Source: PVC group bacterium (GTDB lineage Bacteria; Verrucomicrobiota; Kiritimatiellia; CAIKKV01; CAITUY01). From it: 64,000 nt of DNA. Each line of letters starts with the position of its first letter. Position 1 is the stretch's first letter. Made by a program: the position numbers and the translations under genes. This document shows positions 9,857 to 25,418 of this stretch, in pieces. Location of the stretch: positions 6,157 through 70,156 of the forward strand of contig CAMDCX010000004.1 of assembly GCA_945890715.1 (NCBI GenBank). Direction: 5' to 3'. Below the pieces are notes generated by a model. It made no database searches, was not told where the DNA came from, and saw only the letters and a list, made by a program, of their open reading frames with translations.

Positions 9857-10590
9857 TGGGTGTCGTCCTTTTGCCGACTCTTCCACGTCATCTGCCTGGC
9901 AATGCCCATGAGAATGTTGACGTCGTCCGTCGTCAGCGGCGCACGGGACAGGATGCGGCGGATGCCCAGCATCATGTGGTCGGACTTCTCGTCGTTCATG
10001 AATCCAATATCCAACAGCATCTCGCGCCACATCCTGAACATCTGCTCCCGGGTGGCGGTGAGGCATTCGGACGATTTTTCAACCGGCAACTCAAAGGTTC
10101 CCGACGCCACATACAGCTCGTAAATACACACCATAACCGCCTGAGCCAGATTCAGGGAGGCATAATCCGGCGAGGAGGGAATCTGAATGAGGTTGGTGCA
10201 GATGGCCAGCTCCTCGTTGGTCAGTCCGCTGTTTTCACGACCATAAACCAGAGCGACCGGATTCACGGCAGCGGAGGCCAGAATGGCCGGAGCCCAATCC
10301 CGCGGTGTTTTCACATGCTGGCGATACAGGCCGGGCCGAACAGTGGTGCCCATAACCAGCGCACAGTCGCCCACCGCCTCTTCCAGGGTAGCCACTACGC
10401 GACGTTTTTCAAAAATATCCCCCGCCGCCACGGCCATCATCCGCGCCTCGGCCAGATTCAGGTTTTCCGCAGGCGCCACCAATACCAGCTCCGACAACCC
10501 CATGTTGGCCATCGCCCGGCAGATGGAGCCCACATTCCCACCATAGAGCGGACCCACCAGCACTATTCTTATGTTCTCAAGATTGGCCAT
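9853..10590 (-). CDS. trmJ: SpoU/TrmH-class RNA 2'-O-methyltransferase, TrmJ-like
   Basis: Start at ATG 10590: 'MANLENIRIVLVGPLYGGNVGSICRAMANMGL', 'VYGRENSGLTNEEL' and 'IPSSPDYASLNLAQAVMVCIYE' (SPOUT knot motifs). Confidence 0.8.
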   Translation of the reverse strand: MANLENIRIVLVGPLYGGNVGSICRAMANMGLSELVLVAPAENLNLAEARMMAVAAGDIFEKRRVVATLEEAVGDCALVMGTTVRPGLYRQHVKTPRDWAPAILASAAVNPVALVYGRENSGLTNEELAICTNLIQIPSSPDYASLNLAQAVMVCIYELYVASGTFELPVEKSSECLTATREQMFRMWREMLLDIGFMNDEKSDHMMLGIRRILSRAPLTTDDVNILMGIARQMTWKSRQKDDTQ

Positions 10591-10666
10591 ATCCCCGTCA
10601 CTTCCCCCCGCCTTGACTTCCCGCCCCAAAATGTTACTCATATCGGGTTTTAATGGAGAATGCAAC

Positions 10667-11146
10667 ATGGACGAACTTCTTAAATTATTGAAACATAATG
10701 CGCTGGAAACGCCGAAAAATCTGGCGCGCATGCTGAACACCACCGAAGAGGCCGTCAAAGCCAAGATCGCCGGCTATGAAGGCGCCGGTATCATCCGTGG
10801 CTACCAGGCCGTCTTGAACACCGACCTGATGGATGTGGAACTCGTGCGGGCAGTGATCGAAATCAAGGTCACTCCCGAGCGAGAAGGTGGGTTTAACCGG
10901 ATCGCCGAGCGGGTCAGCAAATTCCCGGAGGTAGAGTCGGTCTACCTGATGTCGGGCACCTATGACCTGATGGCCGTGGTAGCGGGACGGAACCTGAAGG
11001 ATGTGGCTTTTTTTGTGAGCGAGAAACTGGCAACCATCCAGGGGATCATCTCCACCGGAACGCATTTCATGCTCAAAACCTACAAGAACAACGGCGTATT
11101 GATGGAAGCGGAGAAAACCGATGAGCGTCTCAAAGTCTCGCCCTAA
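10667..11146 (+). CDS. Lrp/AsnC family transcriptional regulator
   Basis: Start at ATG 10667 (MDELLKLLKHNALETPKNLARML..., the HTH). The C-terminal RAM-like domain contains 'VYLMSGTYDLMAVV'. Confidence 0.85.
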   Translation: MDELLKLLKHNALETPKNLARMLNTTEEAVKAKIAGYEGAGIIRGYQAVLNTDLMDVELVRAVIEIKVTPEREGGFNRIAERVSKFPEVESVYLMSGTYDLMAVVAGRNLKDVAFFVSEKLATIQGIISTGTHFMLKTYKNNGVLMEAEKTDERLKVSP

Positions 11147-12320
11147 GCCAAAACGGAACCCGGGCGATTTTATTGCCAAACACCTGCTGGATATTCCACG
11201 TTCCGGGATCCGGGATTTCTTCGATATCGTCAGCTCCCGCAAGGATATCATCAGCCTGGGCATTGGCGAACCGGACTTCGTCACCCCCTGGCATATCCGG
11301 GAACAGGCCATCTTTGCCCTCGATCGGGGCGCCACCACCTACACCTCCAACCGCGGCCTTCTTGAATTGCGGCAGGCCATTTCCGCGTATGTCGGGGAAG
11401 CGTTCGGAGTAACCTATGATCCCGAATCCGAAATCCTGATCACCGTCGGCGTCAGCGAAGCGCTCGATCTGGCCATCCGCGCCATTATTGAACCGGGCGA
11501 TGAAGTCATTTATCACGAGCCCTGCTTTGTGTCCTACGCTCCCGAGATCCGGTTTGCACACGGTGTGCCGGTGGCGGTCTCAACCACCCGCGACAATGGT
11601 TTCCGCCTCACCCGCGCCATGCTCGAGGATAAGGTCAGTCCGCGTACCAAGGCGATCCTGCTCAATTTTCCGACGAACCCCACCGGGGCCACGCTGACCC
11701 AGGCCGATGTCGAGGATATCTCCGCCTTCGCCATCGAGCACGACCTGATTGTCATCACCGACGAAATCTACTCCGAGCTTACCTATGAGGGAGGCCGCCC
11801 CAGTATCGCGGCCGTTCCCGGCATGAAGGAGCGCACCATTTTCCTGCATGGTTTCTCCAAAGGCTGGGCCATGACCGGCTTCCGGCTGGGTTACGCCTGC
11901 TCGCCCCCGGAGTTGAGCGAAGCCATGATGAAGATCCACCAGTATATCATGATGTGCGCCCCCATCGTCAGTCAGAAAGCCGCCATCGAAGCGCTCAAGA
12001 CCCGGACGGACACTGAGGATATGCGCCTCTCGTATCAGGAACGCCGGAATTTCCTGTGTGCCGCCCTGAACGAGATGGGCATTCCCTGCCATGTCCCGAA
12101 GGGTGCGTTTTACGTGTTCCCCTATATCGGCGACTACGGCCTGACCTCAAAGGAGTTCGCCTTGAGATTGCTCGACGAAGAAAACGTGGCCTGCGTCCCT
12201 GGCAGCGCTTTCGGCGAGTGCGGCGAAGGCTTCCTGCGCTGCTGCTATGCCACCGACATCGAGGAAATCAAACAGGCCACCGAAAGAATGGCCCGATTTG
12301 TGAAGAGACTGAAGTCTTAA
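11121..12320 (+). CDS. Class I/II PLP-dependent aminotransferase (aspartate/aromatic type)
   Basis: 'LGIGEPDF' and the PLP-lysine block 'HGFSKGWAMTGFRLGY'. It overlaps the Lrp gene end by 26 nt. Confidence 0.9.
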   Translation: MSVSKSRPKPKRNPGDFIAKHLLDIPRSGIRDFFDIVSSRKDIISLGIGEPDFVTPWHIREQAIFALDRGATTYTSNRGLLELRQAISAYVGEAFGVTYDPESEILITVGVSEALDLAIRAIIEPGDEVIYHEPCFVSYAPEIRFAHGVPVAVSTTRDNGFRLTRAMLEDKVSPRTKAILLNFPTNPTGATLTQADVEDISAFAIEHDLIVITDEIYSELTYEGGRPSIAAVPGMKERTIFLHGFSKGWAMTGFRLGYACSPPELSEAMMKIHQYIMMCAPIVSQKAAIEALKTRTDTEDMRLSYQERRNFLCAALNEMGIPCHVPKGAFYVFPYIGDYGLTSKEFALRLLDEENVACVPGSAFGECGEGFLRCCYATDIEEIKQATERMARFVKRLKS

Positions 12321-13180
12321 AGGATCGTCTTCTTCGTCAGTTTGATGAGGGTCTTCCACATCTTCTCGGGAGTTTCCTCTGCCGAGAGCGCCTTGCGCGC
12401 GTCGGCATCGGAGAAAGTCTCGGCCAGACCAGCCAGTAACTTAAGATAGAACGCGCTGGCCGCCGTCGGAATAACCATAAAGAACACGATTTTCGTCGGC
12501 CCCTTGTCATGTCCGTCAAACTTGATTCCCTTGGCGCTTATGCCAAGTCCGAGGGTGAGCCCGCCGCCCTCTACGCCACGAACGTGGGGGAAAGCCATAC
12601 CGTGATCCAACGCGGTGCTGACAATCGCCTCCCGCTTCAACGCGGAGTCAACCAGCTTCCCGGCATCATCCACAAAACCTTCCTCCTGCATTTTGGTCGC
12701 CAGTTCCCGAATCGCCTCATCACGGGTGGTGGCCTTGAGGCGGGGAATCATCAAGCCGGGGGACGAAAACCGGGCAATCCCCACCTTGCGCGGCTCGCTG
12801 CGCCGTTGCGCCTTGCCCACATTCCGGGGCAATCCCTCTTCGAAATAGAGAAGCCGGGTACAGATCGGACACACCTGGAGTTGATCCGACACCTTGACCT
12901 GCTGGGCATGGCTGGTGGGGAGCCGCATCCCGCACGCCGTGCAGGCACCATTGGTCATCGGCACAATGATGATCGAATCCCGCTTCTGCATGCGGATCAG
13001 AAGGGATTGAACATCGGAGGAAAGCTGGCTGGTCAAATCGGCAATCGAGGCATCCAGTTCATCCAACCGGTGCCCATGACGATGGGCTTTCTGTTCGGCG
13101 CGGATCAGGGACAATTCCTGTAATTGAATCAAATGATTAATCTTAGGGTGCATACCTTCACGAATTCCTTTCAAAGTCAT
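12317..13180 (-). CDS. Coiled-coil/C4 zinc-ribbon domain fused to a PTS EIIA(Ntr)-type domain
   Basis: The N-terminal half has 'CTAC...x21...CPIC' (a C4 ribbon, DUF164/COG1579-like). The C-terminal half, 'RDEAIRELATKM...HGMAFPHVRGVEGGGLTLGLGISAKGIKF', resembles PtsN/EIIA-2 including the active-site His. Confidence 0.75.
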   Translation of the reverse strand: MTLKGIREGMHPKINHLIQLQELSLIRAEQKAHRHGHRLDELDASIADLTSQLSSDVQSLLIRMQKRDSIIIVPMTNGACTACGMRLPTSHAQQVKVSDQLQVCPICTRLLYFEEGLPRNVGKAQRRSEPRKVGIARFSSPGLMIPRLKATTRDEAIRELATKMQEEGFVDDAGKLVDSALKREAIVSTALDHGMAFPHVRGVEGGGLTLGLGISAKGIKFDGHDKGPTKIVFFMVIPTAASAFYLKLLAGLAETFSDADARKALSAEETPEKMWKTLIKLTKKTIL

Positions 13181-13238
13181 CGCTCACAACGGGCTAGCAT
13201 TATGAACCTCATTGAACTCCATGTCAATGCACTGCGCA

Positions 13239-13265
13239 TATTACAACTCACCTATTACAACTCAC
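13239..13265. repeat. Tandem 13-mer TATTACAACTCAC x2 (period 14)
   Basis: Exact copies at 13239-13251 and 13253-13265. They span the hsdR stop codon and lie about 60-85 nt upstream of the EIIA-fusion gene start. Confidence 0.5.
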
Positions 13266-16200
13266 GCTACCCACTTCAGTCCTTGGCTAGCATACCCCAG
13301 CATCAAATCAAAAACCCCGTCACATTTGGTCTTGAACAAGACCTTGTCGTAACTCTCCGGCAGATGGATATGTAAAACCTGTTCTACCGCCGACAATACC
13401 TTGAGCTTGGTCTGAGAATCGCGATACCAGTCCTGGACCAAAACCTTTGGCGACTCCTCGAGCAGACGATGGTAAAGCGCCTTTGCGGCTAACTTCACTC
13501 TCCGAGTCTCATCGTTGGTCATCTTCGCTTTCTTCAAAAGGTCAAATAGTTCCAGCTCATCCTCGCTGAGGCCTTCGCGGATATGCCGTTCAGCCTCCTC
13601 TTTCAAGTCCCTGGTATAGTTTATGAGTTCCTCATGATATTTATCCGCCGACGAACTACCGGCATTGTACTCGTCTATAATGTTCTGGAATCGCTGACCA
13701 AAATCGGTCCGGGTCACGTTCTGTTTCAACATCTGATCAAGCTTGTGCTGGATAAAAGCACGCAAGTCGGCAATCTCGATGTTCTTGTAAGGACACTCCT
13801 TGAAATCGGCCCGAAGTTTCTCAAAATCCACTTTGCTCAAGTCCCATGTTTTGCCCGATTGGGTGATCCGCATCGTTGGACTTGGTTCCTTTGCGACAGG
13901 GGAGCGATCCACAACAATGCTCTCATCCAGAAGCTCACCCACACGAACCCCCACGGCACCAACGTCCGTTTGATCGATGATACTGTCGATTACTCCGCGA
14001 AGATACTGGAAGGCAGCTACGGCCCGGACAACCGGTTTTCCCACTATCTCAGGCTTGCAGGACTCATAGAGGGACGTGACGGTATTCTCGTAGACGGCAA
14101 ATCCCTTACGCCAGTCATCTTTGCTCAGGAGGATATCGGCATAGGCATTGAACTGGCTGACATTCTTGAAAACATCCCGACTGCCCAGCAATGCCTTGAA
14201 ATCAATGCCTTTCTCCTCACAGAAAGTCATCCCTTCCGCGATGGAATCATCCAGGAGTTTGAACAATTCCTTCTTTTCCTGGACAGGCGGCGTCTCTTTT
14301 CCTCCCTGCCCCTGGGCGTAATCCTTCAACGCCTTCCGCATGTTGCGGAACACATTGTAATAATCAATGATTTCGCCGTTCTTCTTCTCAACGCCATTGA
14401 TCTTCCATGACGTGACCCGGTTCGGGCGGGCAATAGCCTGCATCAAGGTATGATCCTTCATGGGCTTGTCGAGATACAACGTCGAGAGCGTCGGGGCATC
14501 GAACCCGGTCAGCCACATCGCACATACAAAAACCAATTGCAGGGGATCCTCGGGATCCTTGAAGTTGTATTCGATATCATGTCCCTGTTTATCCAATTTG
14601 TTCATCCGGTCGCGATGCGGCTTGATGTTGAGTTTCATGCCCGCGAACTTCTTCTCCTCGTCGGCTTCCTCGCTGATAACAACCGCCATCTGCACCGACC
14701 GCATGTAATCCACAATCTTCTGCAATTTCTTCTTCTCGTAGACTAAAGCGGCATTCCGGATCTGGCCACGAAGCTCTTTGAGTTGCTCCTTCCAGAGACG
14801 CTGGACTTTGTCGTACATCTTGACGGCCGTGAATTTATCCAGCGAGACCACCATTCCCTTGCCAAGATACCCGCGCCGGGGAAAGTGATAGACAATGTCT
14901 TTGGCGATCTCATCCAGGCGGTCATCACGCTTGATCACCTCGATTTCCGCCGCAAATTTGTTTTCCAATTTCGCCTGCTGGACGGAATCCAGGTTCTCAT
15001 CCTCCAGGATCTCATAGAACTCATCACTCAGGCTCTCGTTCTGGACAAGCACTTTCGGCACGCGCTTTTCATAGAACAGCGGCACGGTGGCGCCGTCATC
15101 CATGGATTGCTGGAAATTGTACTCGGAGACATAATCCCCGAACCAGGCGCTGGTCTTGCGTTCGCTCCCCAGGAGAGGCGTCCCTGTAAACGCCAGATAC
15201 TGAGCCTGCGGCAAACCCTGCCGCATGTTTTCCGCCAGCGACTTGTATTGCGTCCGGTGCGCCTCGTCCACCATCACCACAATATCCTTGCGATCCGACA
15301 GCAAGGGGTAATCCTGCCCCCTCTCCCACCGGAACTTATGGATCAACGTGAACACGAGGCGTTTGTTCTGGCCCAGGAACTTCCGCATCTCCCCGCTGTC
15401 CTTGGGCTGCGCGGCCTCGGCTTTGGTCACCGTGCCCGTGTGGAGGAAATTCCGATAAATCTGCCCATCCAGGTCATCGCGGTCGGTCACCACCACAAAG
15501 GTGAAGTTACCCGTCTCTTTCCGGAAGATCTTCCGGACATAGAAAATCATGGCAAAACTCTTGCCCGCGCCCTGCGTGTGCCAGAATACACCCAACTTAC
15601 CCTTGAGCTCATCACGCTGCCGGAACGCCTGATAGGCGCGGTTGACTCCGATGAACTGGTGGTTCTGCGCGATGATCTTCTGGGTTTCCTTGTAGTAGAG
15701 AGTGAAGTTCTCGACATAATCGAGCAGGCGCTTGCTGGGGAATAGGCCGGCTATAACGCCTTCCAGACTTGTGCCTTTTTTCCGGATTGTATCGCGGTCA
15801 ACCTTCTCCTTCTCATCCTCAGCCCGCAACCAGTTAAAGAAATGCTCCCATTCGGCTGTAATACTACCGACCTTTGTCTCGATGGCATTCGATAAAACAC
15901 AGAACGCATTGGTCAGGAATAACTGGGGAATATCCTTCTTATAGTTGGTCAGGTTGTCATCGAAGGCGGTCTTGAGCTTAACGTTGGAGTTTTTCAGCTC
16001 GATGAAGACCAGAGGGATGCCGTTGACGTAGAGCAGGACGTCCGGCCGGCGAAAGCCACGCTCCCCCTTGATCCAGAGTTGCGTCACCGCCAGATACCGG
16101 TTCTGGTCCGACTCATTGAAGTTGATCAGGCAAACGCGGCCCTTCTGGCGCCTGCCCTTGGCATCGTCGAATTCCACAGCAATTCCATCGCGCAAGAGGG

Positions 16201-16486
16201 TGTAGACCTCATGATTGGCCGCGACAAGCGACATGGCCCGGCGTTTATCCGACAGGGTTTCGAGCGCGCCATCAATCGCCGCTTCCGGGATGCCGGGATT
16301 GAGCCGGACAGCGGCTTCTTTCACCCGGTCAAGCAGGAGGACGTCGCTTTTCCCTGCCCGCCCGGACTCATCGTCCAAATCCTCCGGATCGTCCGTGTGG
16401 CAGTTGAGCACATCGAACCCATGCAGATGCTGGAGCTTCTGCAGGAGCGCCCTCTCAATCTGATCCTCGGAGATGAAATTAGGCAT
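13262..16486 (-). CDS. hsdR: Type I restriction enzyme R subunit
   Basis: 1074 aa. Helicase motif I 'HTQGAGKS', motif II 'VVMVDEAHRTQ', motif III 'AFTGTPL' and motif VI 'QAIARPNR'. The N-terminal nuclease region contains 'VFIELK'. Confidence 0.95.
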   Translation of the reverse strand: MPNFISEDQIERALLQKLQHLHGFDVLNCHTDDPEDLDDESGRAGKSDVLLLDRVKEAAVRLNPGIPEAAIDGALETLSDKRRAMSLVAANHEVYTLLRDGIAVEFDDAKGRRQKGRVCLINFNESDQNRYLAVTQLWIKGERGFRRPDVLLYVNGIPLVFIELKNSNVKLKTAFDDNLTNYKKDIPQLFLTNAFCVLSNAIETKVGSITAEWEHFFNWLRAEDEKEKVDRDTIRKKGTSLEGVIAGLFPSKRLLDYVENFTLYYKETQKIIAQNHQFIGVNRAYQAFRQRDELKGKLGVFWHTQGAGKSFAMIFYVRKIFRKETGNFTFVVVTDRDDLDGQIYRNFLHTGTVTKAEAAQPKDSGEMRKFLGQNKRLVFTLIHKFRWERGQDYPLLSDRKDIVVMVDEAHRTQYKSLAENMRQGLPQAQYLAFTGTPLLGSERKTSAWFGDYVSEYNFQQSMDDGATVPLFYEKRVPKVLVQNESLSDEFYEILEDENLDSVQQAKLENKFAAEIEVIKRDDRLDEIAKDIVYHFPRRGYLGKGMVVSLDKFTAVKMYDKVQRLWKEQLKELRGQIRNAALVYEKKKLQKIVDYMRSVQMAVVISEEADEEKKFAGMKLNIKPHRDRMNKLDKQGHDIEYNFKDPEDPLQLVFVCAMWLTGFDAPTLSTLYLDKPMKDHTLMQAIARPNRVTSWKINGVEKKNGEIIDYYNVFRNMRKALKDYAQGQGGKETPPVQEKKELFKLLDDSIAEGMTFCEEKGIDFKALLGSRDVFKNVSQFNAYADILLSKDDWRKGFAVYENTVTSLYESCKPEIVGKPVVRAVAAFQYLRGVIDSIIDQTDVGAVGVRVGELLDESIVVDRSPVAKEPSPTMRITQSGKTWDLSKVDFEKLRADFKECPYKNIEIADLRAFIQHKLDQMLKQNVTRTDFGQRFQNIIDEYNAGSSSADKYHEELINYTRDLKEEAERHIREGLSEDELELFDLLKKAKMTNDETRRVKLAAKALYHRLLEESPKVLVQDWYRDSQTKLKVLSAVEQVLHIHLPESYDKVLFKTKCDGVFDLMLGYASQGLKWVA

Positions 16487-16545
16487 TCGGTTTCAGAAAG
16501 TCGGCCTTTACACACTTAACGCATTGGCACGCAACCTTATATTCC

Positions 16546-16776
16546 CTATGCGTGACAACAAGCTTTGGCAGAACGACGCAGACTGTGATGTCGAAACGAG
16601 TCTTTAACCGCCTCTCTTTCGATGACGTGAACTGCGTGTAGTTTTTTTTCTGACGACAGCCCTTCCGTCTTGTGCGTTTGGGGCCTGATACCCGGCGGGA
16701 TTCCCGCGCCAATTTCAAGATCGCCTTCAGTGGCGATATGCATTTCATACCACTTCTTAGAGAATTTGAGTTTCAT
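16546..16776 (-). CDS. Small hypothetical ORF coupled to the GNAT gene (reading frame uncertain beyond an A8 tract)
   Basis: Its ATG overlaps the GNAT stop (ATGA at 16773-16776). A second frame (16479-16748) overlaps it and ends 8 nt inside hsdR. The two frames cross at a minus-strand A8 run (16642-16649, position derived from the two ORF-track translations). Confidence 0.35.
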   Translation of the reverse strand: MKLKFSKKWYEMHIATEGDLEIGAGIPPGIRPQTHKTEGLSSEKKLHAVHVIEREAVKDSFRHHSLRRSAKACCHA

Positions 16777-17387
16777 GATTTCCTCGGTTTCTGGCAGAAC
16801 GTTTCTGCCTGTTTTTCAGACATCTCGAAATACATAAGTTGCTGAAGAAATCCCGGATCACGCTGAACCGCCGTCATTCCGCAAGAATCTCGATAAAACC
16901 GTTCGGCTTCAGGCAGGGAGTGCAACCCGATTCTGCCACTGTACCCCATCTCGTTGCTCAATTGAACGGCCTTTGCCATAAAGGCTGACCCAACACCACG
17001 ATAACGAGGCGGTCGTTGCACTTCGGCACGATTCCAAGGTGCCGTCGCGACAAATTCAATGTACACCAACGGCTTCCCTGCCTGTTCCGGAAGTCGTGCC
17101 GTGGTTGTATCGTTGGCAAGCATCAATCCCTGCAACTCACCACGGCACATGATCGAATAGAAATGATATTTCAACAACGGACGCCAGGCATTCGCCTTCC
17201 ATTTCCAATCCCAATGATAATCTTCCGGACTGTCAACCAAAGCTCGTCCCTTACAGTGGATCTCCAGTGCTGGCTTCCAGGTCGCATTCCACATGGCGAG
17301 ATGCTTATCACTGACCTCGTCATACAGCTTAGCCAACACATAACTACCCGATGAGCTTTCCTGCAAATAGACATTGCTTGTCATCAT
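16773..17387 (-). CDS. GNAT family N-acetyltransferase (toxin-like context)
   Basis: Start at ATG 17387 or 17384, 4 nt after the RHH gene stop. Acetyl-CoA motif A 'RYRGVGSAFMAKAV', plus 'LVYIEFVATAPW'. 204 aa. Confidence 0.75.
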   Translation of the reverse strand: MMTSNVYLQESSSGSYVLAKLYDEVSDKHLAMWNATWKPALEIHCKGRALVDSPEDYHWDWKWKANAWRPLLKYHFYSIMCRGELQGLMLANDTTTARLPEQAGKPLVYIEFVATAPWNRAEVQRPPRYRGVGSAFMAKAVQLSNEMGYSGRIGLHSLPEAERFYRDSCGMTAVQRDPGFLQQLMYFEMSEKQAETFCQKPRKS

Positions 17388-17391
17388 AGCG

Positions 17392-17616
17392 CTACAAAAT
17401 GACCAGTTCGGTCTTCTCCTTCGTCTTTTCATCTTCCATCATCAGTTTATGGCCCAACTGGACTTTCGAGTCAGCCGCCTGCAATAACCGGAGCGCCAAT
17501 TTCATCACCCCGGTCTTGCTTAGGTCTTTCTTCGCCGCCAAGTCCTCCAACACGGCCATTTCACGCGCCGTCAAGTTCAGCGTCATCGTCCTTTTATCAG
17601 TCTCTTTCATGTCCAT
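17392..17616 (-). CDS. Ribbon-helix-helix (CopG/Arc-type) protein, antitoxin-like
   Basis: 74 aa. 'RTMTLNLTAREMAVLEDLAAKKDLSKTGVMKLALRLL' fits a beta-strand, helix, helix pattern. It sits directly upstream of the GNAT gene. Confidence 0.65.
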   Translation of the reverse strand: MDMKETDKRTMTLNLTAREMAVLEDLAAKKDLSKTGVMKLALRLLQAADSKVQLGHKLMMEDEKTKEKTELVIL

Positions 17617-17692
17617 AGACTACCACTCAACCAACAAGAAAACAGCAAATAATGTGTATTTTTTAGCTATTTCTTACATACCGATGAACGGC

Positions 17693-18928
17693 TCATTTCT
17701 TTACCTTCCGCGATGCCGTAGCGGGTGCGAACGCCTCGCCATTCATCTCCACCACCATGCCGGGCGGAAACTGGATGTCTAGATCCTCGACGGAGAGTTT
17801 GCCGGAGATGAGACGGGGAAGAAGTTTATCGCGTATCGCTATTAGCTTCTGGTTTGCACATAGGCTATGTTCGATGGCTTTTAAAAGGGGTGATTCCATC
17901 CGCACAAATTCCATCATAATGGGTTCTGGAGGTGTTAGAATCTCAATACGCTTAAATACACCTTTCGATAGTTCTGCAAATGTTGCACCAACAGCCAGCG
18001 ATTCAAAGTGCGGCTTCGCCAGTTTTATCCAATGATACAGATACGGTAGTGGATAATTTGTATTCGGGATACAGGTTATGAACCCTTGGTTCGTACAGGC
18101 AGGTGTAATATTGATTCCTACTGCTCCAATGGTAGCCCGACTCGTCAGCATCACTGAATATGGCGGAAACATTTTAGCGGAACTATTCTTGAAACCTTCC
18201 TCAGTACATTGCGCACCAGACCTCTCCAAGAAAATGCCTTCTGCACCCGTAATGTCCGAAGGAGTGAACCAGTTAACATCCCCTCCGGCCCAGTAACGCT
18301 CAACATCTTTTGCAGGGGTACCACCTCCGGTGTACTTGAATGCCTGCTCCAATTTCACCAATGTCCACCCCTGTGGCACACCCTTGACGACCTTGACTTT
18401 TTCATGGCCGGGGAAGCGGAGCCGGACGAACCATTCTCGGTAGATTTCCTCTGCCACCTTTTCCAACAACGCGATCCGCCGCTTGTTGTTCTCGATCAGT
18501 TCGTCATACGCGGAGAGGATGGCAGCGATCCGTCGTTGAGTATCCAGTGATTTCGGAAAAATAACTTTAATCTTGTGAAGATGATTCCTATTTAGAGTTG
18601 GATTTGACGACCCCACATCAAACGTCTCCAATTTCAACGTCTGGAGAAAGTAGCTAAGGAATCGCGGAATGTTTCCCTTGAAATCCTTAACCCACAGCGT
18701 CGTGTCGTGAGGCCAACAGTTGCCCCGTACGAAATGAACAGTACCGAGCGTACCTTTTCGTCCGATCACTACACTTGGACCTTTGACCTTCCATTTGTTG
18801 TGGAAACTCGCAATACCCGACGAAGAGACAATGGGCACATTGCCTTCAGATTGCTCACTCTTGGTAATATCGAAACCACGTTGAAACGTGAGCACGTCCC
18901 CGAGTCTAACTTTCTGATATTCGCTCAT
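17693..18928 (-). CDS. hsdS: Type I restriction enzyme S (specificity) subunit
   Basis: Start at ATG 18928, overlapping the hsdM stop (ATGA). It has two target-recognition halves, each followed by a conserved helix ('RRIAAILSAYDELIENNKRRIALLEKVAEEIYREWF' and 'QKLIAIRDKLLPRLISGKL'). It is the most AT-rich gene in the window by eye. Confidence 0.92.
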   Translation of the reverse strand: MSEYQKVRLGDVLTFQRGFDITKSEQSEGNVPIVSSSGIASFHNKWKVKGPSVVIGRKGTLGTVHFVRGNCWPHDTTLWVKDFKGNIPRFLSYFLQTLKLETFDVGSSNPTLNRNHLHKIKVIFPKSLDTQRRIAAILSAYDELIENNKRRIALLEKVAEEIYREWFVRLRFPGHEKVKVVKGVPQGWTLVKLEQAFKYTGGGTPAKDVERYWAGGDVNWFTPSDITGAEGIFLERSGAQCTEEGFKNSSAKMFPPYSVMLTSRATIGAVGINITPACTNQGFITCIPNTNYPLPYLYHWIKLAKPHFESLAVGATFAELSKGVFKRIEILTPPEPIMMEFVRMESPLLKAIEHSLCANQKLIAIRDKLLPRLISGKLSVEDLDIQFPPGMVVEMNGEAFAPATASRKVKK

Positions 18929-21012
18929 ATGTCGCCAACGAGCATATTCAGGTTTCCTAAAAGGACAGACTCTAGCTTCGAACATGCACACGTAAGAGCC
19001 GCCAGTTCATCGCGGATAGAGAGCACATCAGCGATGAACTCCTCCTCCGTTTTCCCGTCCTCCTCAATCACCACGCCCACATAACGGCCGGGATTCAGCG
19101 AATAGTCCTGCTCCTTCACATCCGCAGGGGTGGCAAGCTTGCACAGACCGATAACGTCTTCGTATTCGGCGCTGGGAAATCGTTCCTGCAGCCAGTGGAT
19201 GTGCTGGTAGAAGCTTTCAGCGTGCTTCACTTCCTTGTGTAAGGCCTCCAGCGCGGTCTTCAGCGCCTTGGTTTTGCGGTCTATCGTCGAACGTTTTCCC
19301 TCTGCCAGCGCCAACTCGGCCTCCGCCTTTTCATGCTGGCGGACGGTCTTGTCCAACTGCTTCACGCCTTCATGCAATGCGGCAAAGAAGGGATCGAACG
19401 CTTCGCGCAACTGGTGCTGGGCTTTGTTGACCTTGGCGACATCCATTTTAGGCGCCGACGGCGCGGCGCCCTCCACATATTTTTGGTAACGGGCCTGGAG
19501 CTTGTTGAGGCCAGCCCACTGCTTCACCAGATCGCCCACCGCCTGCTTGCCGGGGGCATCGTCCAACACCTCAAGCAGTTGGGCGGAAATGGGCTCGACG
19601 CTGGCCTTGCTCTCGGTGAGCCGCTGCATCCCGGCGGCAAAGTAGCGGTCAATCAGTTGCACGAACTTGTCGCGCCGTCCCTTATGGAGCTGGCTGATGA
19701 TGGCGATGTTCTGAAGCTGTTCATCCGAAAACTCGCGATGGGCGCGGTCAAGCTGGGTAAAGATGTTTCGGGCATCAATAAAGAGGATACGGTTATCCTT
19801 CTTGGCCTTGTCGAAAAACCACAGTGTGGCCGGGAGCGTAACGGTATAGAACATGTTCGAGGGCAGCGTCAGCATCGCATAGATGAGGTTCTTCTCGATC
19901 AGCGTTTGGCGGATATCAGCCTCGGAGTGGCGGGCATCGGACGCGGAATTGGCCATGACCAATGCGGCGCGGCCCTTGGCATTCAGGGATGTGGCAAACA
20001 GGTTGATCCACAGATAGTTGCCGTTGGGCACGGTCTCCTTACCCTGGTCGGCCTTCTTGGCCTTGGATTTCTTGCGAGGCAGGCCATAGGTGTTGAAGCG
20101 CCGATCCTTCTCGACACTGCTCAGGCTCACGTCATCCACGTTGAACGGCGGATTGGCGAGAACATAGTCGAAGGCGCCGAAACTGCCGTGGGGATCCTCG
20201 TAGTAGGTGTTGGCTTTCTTTACGTCGCCGCGCAATCCGTTCACGGCAAGGTTCATCTTGGCGAGATTGATGGTTTCCTGGGTCTTTTCCTGGCCATAGA
20301 CATACACATCGCTGTCCGCATCGCGAGACAGTTCCTTGCGGTGTTCAGCGATAAAATGGGCCGACTGCACAAACATGCCGCCCGATCCGCAGGCCGGGTC
20401 GAACACCTTGCCGCCATGCGGCTCGATGATCTCGACCATCAGCCGCACCACGGAACGCGGCGTGAAAAACTCGCCGCCCTTCTGTCCTTCGCTCCGGGCG
20501 AATTCCGAGAGAAAATACTCGTAAATTTGCCCGAACAGGTCACCGGTAGCATCCGCCGGGATGTTGGCAAAGTTCTTGAGCAAGTCGTTCGGGATGGTTC
20601 GGGTTTTCTCGTCACGGGTAAGGCGGAAATAATCATCCTTGGGCAGGACGCCTTCGAGTTCGGGCTTGTATTGCTCGACAGCCAGCATGGCCTCCTTAAG
20701 GGCCTTGGCAATATCCTTTTCCTCCGGCAGGTTCAGGAGGTAATCATAGCGGGCATGATCCGGCAGGAAGAACCCGCACTTTTCAATGGCGATATCGGAC
20801 AGCTTCTTTTCGCGCCGTGTCCCCTTGAGCTTCTGGTATTCCGCAATGATGTCGGCTTCGTGGCGGCGGTAATTGTTATCGGCGAACTTCAAGAAGATCA
20901 GTCCGAGCACCGGCGTTGAATACTCGCTCGCTTTGAGATCGGAATTGGCCCGGAGGTTATCTGCTGCTCTCCACAGGTCAGCCTCAAGTTGCTTAAATTG
21001 GATTATGGTCAT
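18925..21012 (-). CDS. hsdM: Type I restriction enzyme M subunit (N6-adenine methyltransferase)
   Basis: AdoMet motif I 'VFDPACGSGGMF', catalytic motif IV 'LANPPFNV' and an N-terminal HsdM_N-like 'LWRAADNLR'. A long coiled-coil insertion precedes the C-terminal 'SLNPGRYVG'. ATG 21012 is preferred over the TTG at 21033. Confidence 0.95.
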   Translation of the reverse strand: MTIIQFKQLEADLWRAADNLRANSDLKASEYSTPVLGLIFLKFADNNYRRHEADIIAEYQKLKGTRREKKLSDIAIEKCGFFLPDHARYDYLLNLPEEKDIAKALKEAMLAVEQYKPELEGVLPKDDYFRLTRDEKTRTIPNDLLKNFANIPADATGDLFGQIYEYFLSEFARSEGQKGGEFFTPRSVVRLMVEIIEPHGGKVFDPACGSGGMFVQSAHFIAEHRKELSRDADSDVYVYGQEKTQETINLAKMNLAVNGLRGDVKKANTYYEDPHGSFGAFDYVLANPPFNVDDVSLSSVEKDRRFNTYGLPRKKSKAKKADQGKETVPNGNYLWINLFATSLNAKGRAALVMANSASDARHSEADIRQTLIEKNLIYAMLTLPSNMFYTVTLPATLWFFDKAKKDNRILFIDARNIFTQLDRAHREFSDEQLQNIAIISQLHKGRRDKFVQLIDRYFAAGMQRLTESKASVEPISAQLLEVLDDAPGKQAVGDLVKQWAGLNKLQARYQKYVEGAAPSAPKMDVAKVNKAQHQLREAFDPFFAALHEGVKQLDKTVRQHEKAEAELALAEGKRSTIDRKTKALKTALEALHKEVKHAESFYQHIHWLQERFPSAEYEDVIGLCKLATPADVKEQDYSLNPGRYVGVVIEEDGKTEEEFIADVLSIRDELAALTCACSKLESVLLGNLNMLVGDI

Positions 21013-21129
21013 TGGCTCATCAACTCCATGCAAACGGCTGGCAGTATTACATGCCCATGAGAGAGAGACAAGAATTCAGGCACAGAGCCACAGTCATTAC
21101 AGCCCATGACCCCATGCGCCGAATTTATT

Positions 21130-23169
21130 TCATTTTGCGAATGGCCGAAATCGTAGGGCCACCAGGGTAAAATCGGGTGTGCCCGGTGCCTCCGGCTCGA
21201 ACATCAACACCACCTGCCGGAGTGAGGTCAGGGCCGGAGTGGCGGGAAGCGGAATGGTCAGCGTCTCCCTGCGGCCTGTCGGACGGAACCGAACCGCCAG
21301 CTCATTGCCGTAAGCACGGCCGGTAGCGGCCTGGCCTTCAAACCGAATCACCGCCCGCAATGCGGGCCCGCGGTTCCGATAGGCAATCGTTAGTTCCCCG
21401 TCGGCCAACGAAACTCCTGTCCCTCTCGCTGGAAAGGTCCATGTCACCGCCCCCTGCTTCCCCGCCTCGCCCCGGAGCCGGTACCCGCGCCAGCCGCGCT
21501 CGCCCCACACGACCGCACCCTGTGCCGACCAGGTTGCCGCCTGAGTCCCCGATCCGAGAAAACCCAGCCGATCCCCGACCGGCCTGAGCCGCGCCAGTTC
21601 CGCCTGGAGTCCTTTCGATTCCAGATAACGCTTCAGGCTTGCCGATCCCTGCCCCACTCCCCCGAGAATCAAGGACAACACATGCGCCGTTGTCTGGCAC
21701 TGGATCGGAGTCCCATCCTGCATTCGCATTCCCTCCCAAGGTCCGTGTTCGGTGAATAAAGCCGATATCCCGCCCCACTGTTCGTTCAGGAAGGATTCCA
21801 CCTCGCGCGGCAAAATCTCATGAGCCACTCCCAGCGTATAGAGTGATGGCGCATTGGTAATCCGGGGAGGCTCATTCACCACGGCCAATTCGGGGATTCC
21901 CACCCGGCCAGTATATTCGATTCCCTGTCCCGAGTAGGATTCCGAGAGAAACCCCGGCAGGTTCCCCCGCCTCGAGTAGTCCAGATTGATCCGTACCGCG
22001 TTTTCCAGCACCGCACGCCACCCCGGCGAGGAGCGCTCATCCATGAATAGCGACAATCCCAACGCCTGAAAGGCCGAGCCCTCCCACGGCGCGAGCGTGA
22101 ACAGTTCGCGTCCGTTGGCTAGAATCCGGCTCTTGATCCTGAAGCCCAGGTTCCGCACGGGATCCACGGGAAACCCGTAGCGGATCACCACGAATTCCGT
22201 CGGACCCCGGAATTCATTGACGAGATAATCCGCGTATCCAACCTGCCAGGCTCCACTGGCATCGCCCCACCCGATGAAGCGACGATCCGTGGCGTTCCAG
22301 CCAAAACGGAACAGTCCTCGCTGTGAATCATACAAAAACTCATAGCCCGCCCGTTGCGCCTCCAGAAACGCTTCCATTTTTTTCCGGATGCGTATCGCCG
22401 CAGGATTGTCGCGAATCTCCGGAGACAACAAAGCGCCTTCAGCTTTCGCCACCGAGGCGGCGAGATTAGCATTGTCGCCAAACACCAACTGCACCACACG
22501 CTGATCAAGGATGGCCAGAATCCGGTCACGAATTTCAGGAGAGGCATAAGGAGCCAGGGCGCCCTCAAAGCCCGCCTGACCATACCCCTGCTCCCGCCTG
22601 ATCTCGGCTCCGGCATCGTCCCGCCAGGCGTAAAGCCAGCCGCGTGCCTTGAGAGCCTGCCAGATGGCCTCGCCAACTTCGGCGCCAAAGACCTCTTGAA
22701 ACTCCTTCTTGTGCGCCGCCGAAGCCAGGGGTCCGACCCGCCGCTCCGGCTCGAACCCCATGAAATTGCAGAGGAGTCCGCGTTCAGCCAGGCGAGGGTC
22801 GCGCTGGTCTTCCAGCAGACACTCCATCAGCTGTTCAAGCCGTTCCAGCGCCTCCGCGCGTGACACATGGGGCGACACCACCGTTCCGGCGGCAAAATGG
22901 GAAAGCAACTCCAGCCACGACCCAATCGCGGTCAGCTGGGTGAAGTTCCGCAATCTCAGGCCTGTCGCCGGATCGTCATTCCACCCTTCGGCAGGATAGC
23001 CGGACTTCGGATCGAACACCCCCTGCCCGGGCCGGACATAGCCCAGCGCATTGTCAACCAGATCGCGCATCGCTCCCTTTGCCCAGACGGTCTCACACCA
23101 GAGGCCCGCCACCAACCCCAGCAGGGCAGCGCATCGCACACGGTTCCAGTTGACAGAAGAAACATTCAT
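21130..23169 (-). CDS. Secreted protein, possible (alpha/alpha)6-barrel glycosidase-like domain (DUF3131/glucoamylase-like) plus C-terminal beta domain
   Basis: 679 aa with a signal peptide. Blocks such as 'FGWNATDRRFIGWGDASGAWQVGYADYLVNEF' and 'APWEGSAFQALGLSLFMDE' resemble glucoamylase-like folds. The family assignment is from memory only. Confidence 0.45.
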   Translation of the reverse strand: MNVSSVNWNRVRCAALLGLVAGLWCETVWAKGAMRDLVDNALGYVRPGQGVFDPKSGYPAEGWNDDPATGLRLRNFTQLTAIGSWLELLSHFAAGTVVSPHVSRAEALERLEQLMECLLEDQRDPRLAERGLLCNFMGFEPERRVGPLASAAHKKEFQEVFGAEVGEAIWQALKARGWLYAWRDDAGAEIRREQGYGQAGFEGALAPYASPEIRDRILAILDQRVVQLVFGDNANLAASVAKAEGALLSPEIRDNPAAIRIRKKMEAFLEAQRAGYEFLYDSQRGLFRFGWNATDRRFIGWGDASGAWQVGYADYLVNEFRGPTEFVVIRYGFPVDPVRNLGFRIKSRILANGRELFTLAPWEGSAFQALGLSLFMDERSSPGWRAVLENAVRINLDYSRRGNLPGFLSESYSGQGIEYTGRVGIPELAVVNEPPRITNAPSLYTLGVAHEILPREVESFLNEQWGGISALFTEHGPWEGMRMQDGTPIQCQTTAHVLSLILGGVGQGSASLKRYLESKGLQAELARLRPVGDRLGFLGSGTQAATWSAQGAVVWGERGWRGYRLRGEAGKQGAVTWTFPARGTGVSLADGELTIAYRNRGPALRAVIRFEGQAATGRAYGNELAVRFRPTGRRETLTIPLPATPALTSLRQVVLMFEPEAPGTPDFTLVALRFRPFAK

Positions 23170-23936: not shown

Positions 23937-24306
23937 ACCTGATGTTACTACCCTGGAACGCATTTTCCATGAACCCAACCGGATGGCCATCCTGTCCGCG
24001 CTCTGCGCCTCAGGCGATCCGCTATCTTTTATTGAACTAAAAACACTCGCCGGGCTGACCGATGGCAATCTCAGCCGTCACCTCAAGGCGCTGGAAGAGG
24101 CTGGAGTGATCCGCATCAGCAAAACCTTTGTTGGAGTCAAACCCCGGACGACCGTGACACTTACGGAAAAGGGCCTGAAGCGGTTTGATGACTATTTGTC
24201 CGCTCTTTCAGATGTGTTGAAAAAAGCAAAGCTAGCCATGGCAACAGACAGAAGAATGGGGTGGGCGCCGACCTCCGGGCGGCGGCAGATAGTGAAAGGC
24301 ACATAA
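23920..24306 (+). CDS. Winged-helix transcriptional regulator (ArsR/HTH_34-like)
   Basis: ATG 23920 with a GAGGAGG RBS. 'FHEPNRMAILSALCASGDPLSFIELKTLAGLTDGNLSRHLKALEEAGVIRISK'. It overlaps the upstream gene by 17 nt. Confidence 0.7.
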   Translation: MKHPVEPDVTTLERIFHEPNRMAILSALCASGDPLSFIELKTLAGLTDGNLSRHLKALEEAGVIRISKTFVGVKPRTTVTLTEKGLKRFDDYLSALSDVLKKAKLAMATDRRMGWAPTSGRRQIVKGT

Positions 24307-25418
24307 TGACTCGTTGGCCAAAAATATTAGCCGGCTGGGTCGGAGGCATAGCCTTACTGATCGGGATGCCGCTGCTCGGCGTCTGGCTGTCGGGCGTCCC
24401 GGTGGCGCCCTATCTGGAAATGCCGCCCCGCACCGACTTTGTGACACACGCGGCATTCTCATGGCCACTCTTTTGTGGACTGGCCACTTTGATCATGGCG
24501 GTCATCAGCCCGTTTGTGTTCCGCATCATTCGCACTCATGGGGCGCGGACATCTTTCCCATGTCCGACGGATACGGGATGCTTTCCCTGGTGGGGCTGGC
24601 TGGGAGTGCTCACGGTACTCGTCGCTTGGGCTCTCGCCTGGACACGATTTCCCTGGTTCGTGCCCTTCCAGCCCTTCACCTTCACTCCACTCTGGCTGGC
24701 CTATATCGTGATCATGAACGCCCTGGCCTACCGGCGAACCGGCCGCTCGCCGCTCACCCACCGCACCCTGCCCTATCTCGCACTATTCCCCATGAGTGCC
24801 GTGTTCTGGTGGTTCTTCGAGTATCTGAACCGTTTCGTTCAGAACTGGCATTACATCGGTATCGTCCCCCTGACGGCGGAGGAATACGTCCTGCGCGCCA
24901 CCTTGCCCTTTGCCACCGTCCTGCCCGCCTTTGTCGCCACCCGTGCCTGGCTGGCCAGTTATCCCGGACTCACCGCAGGGCTGGTCAACTGCCGCCCCGT
25001 CGTCGTGCGGCAGCCGCACCGCCTCGCCTGGCTGACCCTGGGCGTGGCGGCTGCTGGCCTCGCTGGAATCGGCATCTGGCACGAGGTTCTGTTTCCCTTG
25101 CTCTGGATTTCCCCGCTGATCATCATGGGCTCCATCCGGTCATTAAATGAGAAAGCCACACTTCTCAACGATCCCGCCCGCGGCGATTGGCGCCGACTCG
25201 TTCTGGCGGCAACCGCTGCACTGGTATGCGGCTTCTTCTGGGAGATGTGGAACCTCCTCAGTCTGGAAAAGTGGATTTACACCGTGCCATTTGTGGACCG
25301 CTTTCATGTCTTTGAAATGCCCCTTCTCGGCTATGCCGGCTATCTCCCTTTCGGGATCGAATGCGCCTTGATCGCGGAATGGGTTGGACTGACAGGAAAG
25401 GAGCACGCTGATGAATAA
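24306..25418 (+). CDS. Polytopic membrane protein with two-fold internal repeat, unknown function
   Basis: Its ATG overlaps the upstream stop (TAATG). The repeated blocks are 'TPLWLAYIVIM...VFWWFFEYLNRFVQNWHYIGIVP' and 'PLLWISPLIIM...CGFFWEMWNLLSLEKWIYTVPF'. Confidence 0.7.
   Translation: MTRWPKILAGWVGGIALLIGMPLLGVWLSGVPVAPYLEMPPRTDFVTHAAFSWPLFCGLATLIMAVISPFVFRIIRTHGARTSFPCPTDTGCFPWWGWLGVLTVLVAWALAWTRFPWFVPFQPFTFTPLWLAYIVIMNALAYRRTGRSPLTHRTLPYLALFPMSAVFWWFFEYLNRFVQNWHYIGIVPLTAEEYVLRATLPFATVLPAFVATRAWLASYPGLTAGLVNCRPVVVRQPHRLAWLTLGVAAAGLAGIGIWHEVLFPLLWISPLIIMGSIRSLNEKATLLNDPARGDWRRLVLAATAALVCGFFWEMWNLLSLEKWIYTVPFVDRFHVFEMPLLGYAGYLPFGIECALIAEWVGLTGKEHADE

Follow-up and report, generated by a model that had tools for sequence, protein, structure and literature searches.

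What are three small genes doing between the specificity and restriction genes of a type I restriction-modification (R-M) operon? The question arises in a 64,000-nucleotide (nt) stretch of contig CAMDCX010000004.1 from a PVC group bacterium, here called the window, whose minus strand reads hsdM, hsdS, a gene for a 74-amino-acid (aa) ribbon-helix-helix (RHH) protein, a gene for a 204-aa GNAT-type acetyltransferase, a 76-aa open reading frame (ORF), and hsdR. An original prediction, made from the bare sequence, saw in the RHH-GNAT pair a possible toxin-antitoxin (TA) system serving the R-M enzyme as a second line of defence. The cassette is real, intact and non-housekeeping, and on sequence criteria it belongs, in a short form, to a widespread module with the layout RHH-GNAT-(N-terminal-peptide protein)-(peptidase). 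The module turns up next to, or embedded in, a wide variety of anti-phage systems, so it probably serves to control bacterial immunity or to back it up and is not an ordinary TA pair.

The module is recognized by an RHH gene, a GNAT gene of about 200 aa with the segments TAPWNR and GRIGLHS, and a following gene whose product opens with MKxxxxKxW...E..EIGAG. All three are found in the window and likewise in 160 related loci (designated by L numbers), 80 from species-representative genomes and 80 from metagenomes, which were annotated with purpose-built hidden Markov models (HMMs). An RHH homologue lies immediately upstream of the GNAT gene in all 80 genome loci, and it precedes GNAT in essentially all of the 160 loci with upstream DNA present. 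The third gene starts at the GNAT stop or overlaps it and usually encodes about 160 aa with an XRE helix-turn-helix (HTH) domain (Pfam HTH_19/HTH_3), while the usual fourth product is a Peptidase_M78 protein (ImmA/IrrE) of about 309 aa with an HEIGH motif. Among loci with at least 1.6 kb of downstream sequence, the full four-gene module was found in 86, and RHH, GNAT and HTH genes in 25 more. The conserved unit thus has three or four genes, the last two CapH/CapP-like, and the notion of a two-gene TA pair had to be given up.

The link to CapH/CapP comes mainly from the fourth gene, whose best PADLOC match is capP (1e-11 to 1e-13); the capH match of the third gene is weak. On Nitrobacter hamburgensis plasmid 2, RefSeq annotates a CopG RHH protein, a GNAT, an HTH regulator and an ImmA-IrrE protein adjoining an operon of the cyclic-oligonucleotide-based anti-phage signalling system (CBASS); the Nitrobacter module includes the proteins WP_011505072, WP_245270123 and WP_011505074. 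Cultured carriers of the module are N. hamburgensis X14 (plasmid 2), Roseibacillus persicicus KCTC 12988, Leptospira interrogans and Methylomonas methanica. The searchable literature, searched for GNAT or RHH proteins in connection with CapH/CapP, ImmA, CBASS or type I R-M, yielded no account of the module.

The cassette and its short form

Re-reading of the sequence reproduced the predicted coordinates, gene order and overlaps around the hsdS-hsdR gap. The features of the operon are:

18925..21033, minus strand: hsdM, type I methyltransferase subunit (Pfam N6_Mtase 2.5e-79, HsdM_N; PADLOC MTase_I 3e-205)
17693..18928, minus strand: hsdS, specificity subunit (Methylase_S 4.3e-42; PADLOC Specificity_I 4e-102)
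17617..17692, minus strand: A+T-rich spacer of 76 nt upstream of the RHH gene (from the sequence)
17392..17616, minus strand: RHH gene, 74 aa (CopG/ParD profile matches, AlphaFold2 (AF2) model, homologues upstream of GNAT)
16773..17387, minus strand: gene for a divergent GNAT-fold acyltransferase, 204 aa (AF2 model, Foldseek, family alignment)
16546..16776, minus strand: small ORF, 76 aa, short form of the module's third gene (N-terminal peptide matches, ungapped short-form alignment)
16487..16545, minus strand: spacer of 59 nt before hsdR (from the sequence)
13262..16486, minus strand: hsdR, restriction subunit, 1074 aa (TIGR00348 3.5e-143; HSDR_N, SWI2_SNF2 and T1RH-like_C domains)

All three subunits of a type I enzyme, HsdM, HsdS and HsdR, are encoded in this one operon. 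The hsdM start codon may be TTG at 21033 or ATG at 21012, and the hsdM TGA stop overlaps the hsdS ATG at 18928 (ATATGA, by direct reading). The GNAT ORF begins 4 nt after the RHH ORF, and the small-ORF ATG overlaps the GNAT stop (ATGA).

Pfam, NCBIfam, PADLOC and PDB sequence searches returned nothing above threshold for the RHH protein, the GNAT or the small ORF. A profile of the RHH family (27 homologues) matched CopG (2cpg, E=0.006) and ParD antitoxins over the strand-helix-helix region, in the range 0.006-0.06, and one homologue carries the RefSeq name 'ribbon-helix-helix protein, CopG family'. The AF2 monomer, predicted from an alignment of database homologues, has an extended N-terminal segment (strand not assigned), helices at 17-29 and 34-53, and a C-terminal beta-hairpin. 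Foldseek of this 74-aa monomer gave non-significant matches only, HU/IHF first, with CopG, AtaR, TacA2, Arc and NikA scattered among them, so the RHH call leans on the CopG/ParD profile matches. Pfam finds nothing in the protein, and it therefore has no DUF1778 domain. The C-terminal tail is conserved (G55..K57..E61..E70), and the RHH family, with 671 clusters, is comparable in size to the GNAT family.

The GNAT assignment rests on structure, because matches to Pfam GNAT models fall below threshold (E about 0.01). The AF2 model, built on an alignment of 22 homologues, has a pLDDT of 89.4 and the GNAT order of strands and helices in a single-domain fold, with an additional N-terminal strand and a C-terminal helix. 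Foldseek against the PDB gave 250 matches at E<=1e-3 (best E 1.8e-6), and all 50 of those listed are GNAT-type acetyltransferases. The best structural neighbours are generic or N-terminal acetyltransferases, with uncharacterised or metabolic enzymes at the top, and N-alpha-acetyltransferases (NatD, Naa60, NatC, RimI, RimJ) account for 11 of the 50 listed. The TA toxins 7byy and 9ils (GmvT) rank 29th and 39th among the matches listed and score much like the others; the comparison gives no specific link between the protein and the TacT/AtaT group. A phmmer search of PDB sequences gave nothing below E=0.8 and matched no solved TA toxin.

In the family alignment, motif A (RYRGVG, 128-133) and motif B (AxxFYxxxG, 161-169; AERFY at 161-165 in the window) are invariant or nearly so, as are the TAPWNR insert (115-120), GRIGLHSL (151-158) and the Trp-rich HWDW (58-61). 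The family comprises 968 clusters at 90% identity by word-indexed search and 1,871 clusters at 50% identity by exhaustive profile search, nearly all of them single-domain proteins of about 200 aa. The window GNAT is, by these comparisons, a member of a distinct, uncurated family. That the RHH and GNAT form a pair of their own family, followed by a real small ORF, had been predicted, and both the 1,871-cluster family and the ungapped short ORFs described below bear this out. In one database protein, P0114 (255 aa), the GNAT runs on from GRIGLHSL, in frame, into the third-gene HTH (..FVALWRRNRGWNAEKLAA..), apparently through a deletion that joined genes 2 and 3.

The enzyme gene decays more often than its RHH partner. 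GNAT is disrupted by nonsense mutation, frameshift or truncation in about 8-10 independent lineages and RHH in 0 of 151 loci, an asymmetry that is typical of a costly or toxic enzyme with a protective partner and is consistent with a toxin. Sequence divergence within the set, too, is greatest for GNAT: across loci where the R-M genes could be compared as well, its identity is 52-71%, versus 83-86% for RHH and 79-84% for hsdR/hsdM. In one widespread lineage (L017, 7781-8539; L172-L174, 7001-7740) the RHH gene is intact and identical, GNAT is in fragments, and the third and fourth genes are absent; the RHH of this lineage (P0159) is indexed in 43 collection blocks and was seen on 23 contigs. The pattern looks like that of an orphan antitoxin.

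The third gene is marked by its N-terminal peptide, which follows directly after the GNAT stop in nearly all loci. Within the peptide W9 is invariant, and M1, K2, K7, E17, A24 and G25 are nearly so. The window's 76-aa ORF retains it (MKLKFSKKWYEMHIATEGDLEIGAG) and has a basic tail ending ...AKACCHA in place of the HTH domain. tblastn and alignment relate its first 25-38 residues to third genes elsewhere, and the third-gene family HMM matches only its first ~39 residues. The ORF is called as a gene in the source annotation, and ungapped relatives of equal length, in L001/L170 at 57% identity and, within another genomic context, in L163 at 42%, argue that it is a real gene. In the window, L001 and L163 alike, the short ORF closes with a basic tail that ends AK(A/V)C(C/R)HA, and in L001 a trace of the first HTH helix remains. 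A word-indexed protein-database search with the 76-aa ORF returned only itself; its short-form relatives were found through their loci.

The partners of the peptide vary. In most loci it is joined to an XRE HTH domain, in L029 to a HicB-type RHH, and in L014/L016 to a PD-Lambda-2_B-like M78 peptidase; on cyanobacterial plasmids it is joined to other domains, and in the window, L163, L001, L093, L002 and L004 it is followed by a short basic tail. With such varied fusion partners, the peptide travels with GNAT and with no single downstream domain. A variant on the Nostoc sp. PCC 7120 plasmid pCC7120alpha (L162, 5715-7470) encodes an 87-aa protein, a 188-aa GNAT homologue, and proteins of 174 and 124 aa, all annotated as hypothetical, with no HTH or M78 gene; the 174-aa protein contains ...AEDAVGGNIGAG and probably starts at Met18. 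The GNAT family is present on 15 Nostoc and 7 Calothrix plasmids.

How did the window come by its short third gene? In the GNAT tree, L002, L093, the window and the L001 group, all with a short third gene, form one clade that is sister to full-length forms including L099, and the third gene of L004 was shortened independently. Comparison of window positions 16400-16800 with L099 by blastn and tblastn revealed no HTH or M78 remnants beyond the N-terminal peptide, and the alignment resumes about 5 nt upstream of the hsdR ATG. Since nothing aligns between the peptide and the vicinity of hsdR, a simple deletion scar is not demonstrable. The window cassette is, from this pattern of relatedness, a derived short form without the HTH domain and the peptidase. 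The ungapped short ORFs and the lack of any peptidase remnant argue that it is a maintained three-gene unit and not a fresh scar.

The spacer at 17617..17692 is a possible internal promoter or operator region; a promoter scan found no match to the sigma-70 consensus on the minus strand. A 10-bp inverted repeat (16524-16533 / 16549-16558, 90% complementary, 15-nt loop) spans the small-ORF stop and overlaps the conserved ...CCHA codons just upstream of hsdR. Having no T-tract, it is not a classical terminator, and because its conservation in L163 is weak and not clear we assign it no role.

The block of R-M genes and cassette (window 13000-19500) has a G+C content of 48-55%, versus 58-62% in the flanks, and its neighbours are housekeeping genes for an Lrp/AsnC regulator, an aminotransferase, a PTS EIIA-like protein and a MatE transporter. 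A low-G+C block between such neighbours looks like an acquired islet and suggests that the R-M genes and cassette were horizontally acquired. This placement of the cassette in a low-G+C R-M island also speaks against the housekeeping acetyltransferase that the original prediction had held out as its alternative. There is no tRNA gene in the window and no integrase near the R-M block, and an Rfam scan of window 12-22 kb gave nothing informative. Two ORFs flanking the island are without a Pfam match: one of 679 aa (21130-23169, minus strand) and one of 385 aa (24261-25418, plus strand).

Immune operons around the module

The survey of type I loci that the original prediction had proposed was positive. 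The cassette recurs in several unrelated R-M families, so its position in the window is not an isolated case, and at least four arrangements can be distinguished (window/L171/L099; L163; L006/L007/L010/L115; L105). In the first, L171 carries hsdM (79% identical to that of the window), hsdS (57%), RHH (83%), GNAT (52%) and a long HTH third gene up to the contig end, and L099 carries RHH, GNAT, HTH and peptidase genes and then hsdR, which shares 79% identity with the window hsdR and whose ATG and the peptidase stop overlap by 8 nt. Taken together, these two loci show the full module occupying the same slot of the orthologous R-M operon.

The R-M family of L163/L164 is unrelated to that of the window. 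Here the order is hsdR-hsdM-hsdS, a 274-aa gene, RHH (86%), GNAT (59%), the 76-aa short ORF (42%) and a gene for a 3069-aa protein. The 274-aa gene, between hsdS and RHH, has no assigned function; the 3069-aa protein (L163 8313-14219, the gene running beyond the locus) has no Pfam domain and a weak GYF_2 match. In Roseibacillus (L006/L007), and also in L010 and L115, an EcoEI-type hsdR and hsdS precede the full module and hsdM follows it. L006 (R. persicicus) has in addition a PDC-S27-type STAND/AAA ATPase gene (10394-11809; PADLOC E=1.7e-183) between the module peptidase and hsdM, and a duplicated piece of the hsdM 5' end at 10039-10250. In L105 the full module is followed by a third type of hsdR. 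All R-M-embedded modules are in line with the operon, and they lie downstream of hsdS wherever the contig includes hsdS.

R-M operons are a recurrent setting for the family but not its most frequent one: CBASS and Bub operons are more common. Over 121 informative loci the neighbours of the module were:

Bub/6E-type ubiquitin-like operons (Multi_ubiq, ThiF-JAB, DUF6527, DUF6791): 41 loci
CBASS operons (SMODS with HORMA/AAA/SAVED, or with patatin): 24 loci
type I R-M genes: 13 loci
mixed: 3 loci
other or unidentified: 40 loci

In the loci examined, the module at CBASS and Bub operons is immediately upstream and divergent. The GNAT family is present on 55 plasmids, and the phage genomes searched contained no family homologue. 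Orphan copies, flanked by housekeeping genes or adjoining serine recombinases, are numerous in the Verrucomicrobia-type clade, which includes the window. In L014 (7215-9246) the peptide is fused to a PD-Lambda-2_B-like M78 peptidase (E=2.8e-86, profile positions 106-396), and a Beta/PD-Lambda-2_C protein comes next (E=2e-49); the same pattern is seen in L016 and L125-L127. RHH-GNAT therefore also precedes a PD-Lambda-2-like system.

Explanations for the cassette

The reading we favour, with a confidence that stops a little short of even, is that of a TA-like acetyltransferase which the RHH restrains and which the N-terminal peptide links to the control of adjoining defence genes. The RHH protein would repress the operon of the module, and its C-terminal tail would keep the GNAT inactive in the manner of an antitoxin. 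The peptide of the third protein would dock on the GNAT or become acetylated by it, and in this way the enzyme would be linked to the regulator of the nearby defence genes. On loss of control, whether by phage shut-off, DNA damage or proteolysis, the GNAT would either acetylate a cellular target and so arrest growth, or reset the regulator. The window version would then amount to an RHH-controlled acetyltransferase plus a docking peptide. Its transcription probably falls between that of hsdS and that of hsdR, so that it would be expressed with, and just ahead of, hsdR. Membership in the module would explain the genes wedged between hsdS and hsdR in the R-M family of the window.

Several considerations weigh against this proposal. 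We infer every mechanistic step past gene linkage, and the docking or acetylation step in particular is drawn from that linkage. A promoter/terminator scan of the window identified no promoter or operator. The disruption counts for GNAT are small, and errors of metagenome assembly may account for some of the disruptions. Decay is visible in the nearest lineage (L001, L167-L170): GNAT has a nonsense codon, hsdM is lost and hsdS is reduced to a 110-aa remnant, so that the R-M plus cassette arrangement is dispensable there. This remnant is a C-terminal piece, and HsdR in the same lineage has 929 or 1074 aa. The nonsense codon is TAA at Tyr109 of GNAT (L001 8325-8327, L081 3220-3222, L082 3382-3384); the gene is intact in L083, and the presence of TAT/TAC in this sister sample argues that the allele is polymorphic. 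Finally, Verrucomicrobia-type copies are in many cases found on their own amid housekeeping genes, so the module may be autonomous and not a regulator of its neighbours.

A bolder proposal is one that we regard as possible and rather unlikely: GNAT and peptide would together form an acetylation switch, undescribed in the searchable literature, within CapH/CapP-type control of CBASS, Bub, PD-Lambda-2-like and type I R-M systems. The R-M short form would then be a self-contained sensor-effector that either gates hsdR expression or arrests growth once restriction has been subverted. Should the GNAT be an effector, it would represent an immunity-linked acetyltransferase toxin of a new kind; should it modify the repressor, a layer of acetylation would be added to immune-operon control.

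The second of these outcomes leads to the strongest rival, one that we consider unlikely and still worth keeping in view, in which the module is a non-toxic regulator. On the CapH-like repressor (in the window, on the 76-aa protein), the GNAT would acetylate the conserved peptide, either at its N-terminus or at a lysine, thereby tuning repression or cleavage and the expression of defence, and the RHH protein would be a second repressor. In keeping with this, the product of the gene that immediately follows GNAT invariably begins with the peptide, which stays with GNAT through domain swaps. The 11 N-alpha-acetyltransferases among the 50 structural neighbours listed fit this rival as well, although the structural matches fail to separate N-terminal acetyltransferases from other GNATs. 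The strict adjacency and divergence of the module at CBASS and Bub operons resemble those of CapH/CapP (Lau et al., 10.1101/2022.04.27.489752). The stable maintenance of short forms whose only DNA-binding domain is the RHH is hard to explain if a repressor is the sole target, and pseudogenisation specific to GNAT suggests a fitness cost.

A classical type II GNAT TA system of the TacAT/AtaRT kind is improbable. In such a system the enzyme would acetylate charged tRNA, the RHH protein would neutralise it, and the pair would provide PrrC-like second-line abortive infection; the aminoacyl-tRNA target and the back-up role would be carried over by analogy. The order of antitoxin then toxin with 4-nt spacing, the conserved C-terminal tail of the RHH, the weak structural resemblance of the latter to TacA2 and AtaR, and pseudogenisation that strikes GNAT in several lineages and RHH never would all suit a TA pair, as would an hsdS-hsdR slot like that of prrC and the recurrence in R-M loci. 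Other results are difficult to accommodate. No Pfam family, and hence no DUF1778, was found in the RHH; the GNAT has no sequence match to any solved TA toxin, and the Foldseek comparison suggested by the original prediction puts the TA toxins (29th and 39th) behind generic GNATs and N-terminal acetyltransferases, so that membership among TacAT, AtaRT and KacAT is not supported. The third gene with its conserved peptide is nearly always present, a CapP-like peptidase is usually fourth, and most family members accompany CBASS or Bub and not R-M; such tight coupling of the module's position to CapH/CapP-type regulators and specific immune operons argues against any simple TA reading. Of the original interpretation, the distinct family and the recurrence in R-M operons stand, whereas the TacAT-type membership and the two-gene pair do not.

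Quite doubtful, too, is a selfish addiction cassette or decaying remnant with no defence role, that is, a TA-like mobile element that inserted in the R-M operon and lost half its genes here. Mobile TA-like elements often insert in defence islands, and the orphan copies between housekeeping genes or beside serine recombinases, the 55 plasmids with family members, the decaying sister lineage and the traceless absence of HTH and peptidase genes from the window would all be expected of such an element. Decay, however, should not leave all three window ORFs intact or a short third gene conserved in length and sequence across contexts. Nor would one expect a selfish insertion to be kept in orthologous R-M operons at 79% hsdM/hsdR identity, or to hold a fixed in-line position after hsdS in unrelated R-M families.

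A housekeeping or antibiotic-type acetyltransferase lying in the operon by chance would have the generic GNAT fold and the uncharacterised or metabolic top neighbours in the PDB, but it is hardly credible for a gene with obligate RHH and peptide partners, a patchy distribution in defence, plasmid and island contexts, and no NCBIfam or Pfam family assignment.

Comparison with known systems

The GNAT/DUF1778 TA systems (TacAT, AtaRT, KacAT, ItaRT, GmvAT) resemble the cassette in having a small RHH gene immediately upstream of a GNAT with intact acetyl-CoA motifs, in an RHH C-terminal extension that could neutralise the enzyme, and in a GNAT gene that decays more often than its partner. They differ in that the RHH here has 74 aa and no DUF1778, with no detectable sequence relationship. 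In the GNAT here, of about 200 aa, the alpha1-alpha2 region is long and rich in Trp, motif A is preceded by an invariant insert of 12 residues (TAPWNR...), and there is an additional strand at the N-terminus. Nor is the unit a self-contained two-gene operon, given a third gene in nearly all loci and a fourth in 86.

In the EcoprrI locus, the anticodon nuclease gene prrC occupies the hsdS-hsdR slot. Its product, with an ABC-ATPase-like N-domain and an anticodon nuclease domain, stays latent in the hold of the R-M complex until a phage anti-restriction factor sets it free. Both loci thus have an accessory non-R-M gene between hsdS and hsdR, co-oriented with the operon. The window proteins are unrelated to PrrC, with no ABC-ATPase or anticodon-nuclease domain found in them, and the same cassette also serves non-R-M systems.

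RosmerTA consists of the toxin RmrT and the antitoxin RmrA, an HTH-ImmA peptidase. Like RosmerTA and PD-Lambda-2, the module has a variable effector gene followed by an HTH and an ImmA-type peptidase, and the third and fourth genes of L014/L016/L125-L127 match PD-Lambda-2_B and _C. The module differs from RosmerTA in that its HTH and peptidase are separate genes and its capP match (1e-13) is far better than its RmrA match (1e-4), and from both systems in that its RHH and GNAT match no PADLOC model.

A further parallel is with CapH/CapP, which, like IrrE/DdrO and ImmA/ImmR, are DNA-damage-responsive regulators of CBASS, Bub, DISARM and other immune operons; in the CapH/CapP type, ssDNA activates cleavage of the repressor. 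CapH/CapP lie upstream of, and divergent from, the immune operon that they regulate (Lau et al., 10.1101/2022.04.27.489752). They are reported beside hundreds of CBASS operons (PMC11601596; 10.1101/2022.04.27.489752) and at 31% of Bub operons (PMC11601596), and in the searchable literature they are described as two-protein systems (PMC11601596; 10.1101/2022.04.27.489752). Neither a GNAT nor an RHH protein is mentioned in the CapH/CapP papers (10.1101/2022.04.27.489752, PMC11601596 and a 2026 CapP preprint). Genes 3 and 4 of the full module have the same composition, an XRE HTH protein and an M78 peptidase with capP as its best PADLOC match, and the same divergent position upstream of CBASS and Bub. 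Unlike CapH/CapP, the module has RHH and GNAT genes between the shared promoter region and the HTH gene, its HTH protein has an N-terminal extension of ~45 residues that the canonical CapH, as described, is without, and in R-M loci it lies in line and not divergent. The window copy has neither the HTH domain nor the peptidase, whereas its relatives have both. A large subset of CapH/CapP pairs thus carries two more conserved genes, for an RHH protein and a dedicated GNAT, together with an N-terminal extension on the repressor, and the RHH-GNAT-containing unit also occurs in line inside type I R-M operons.

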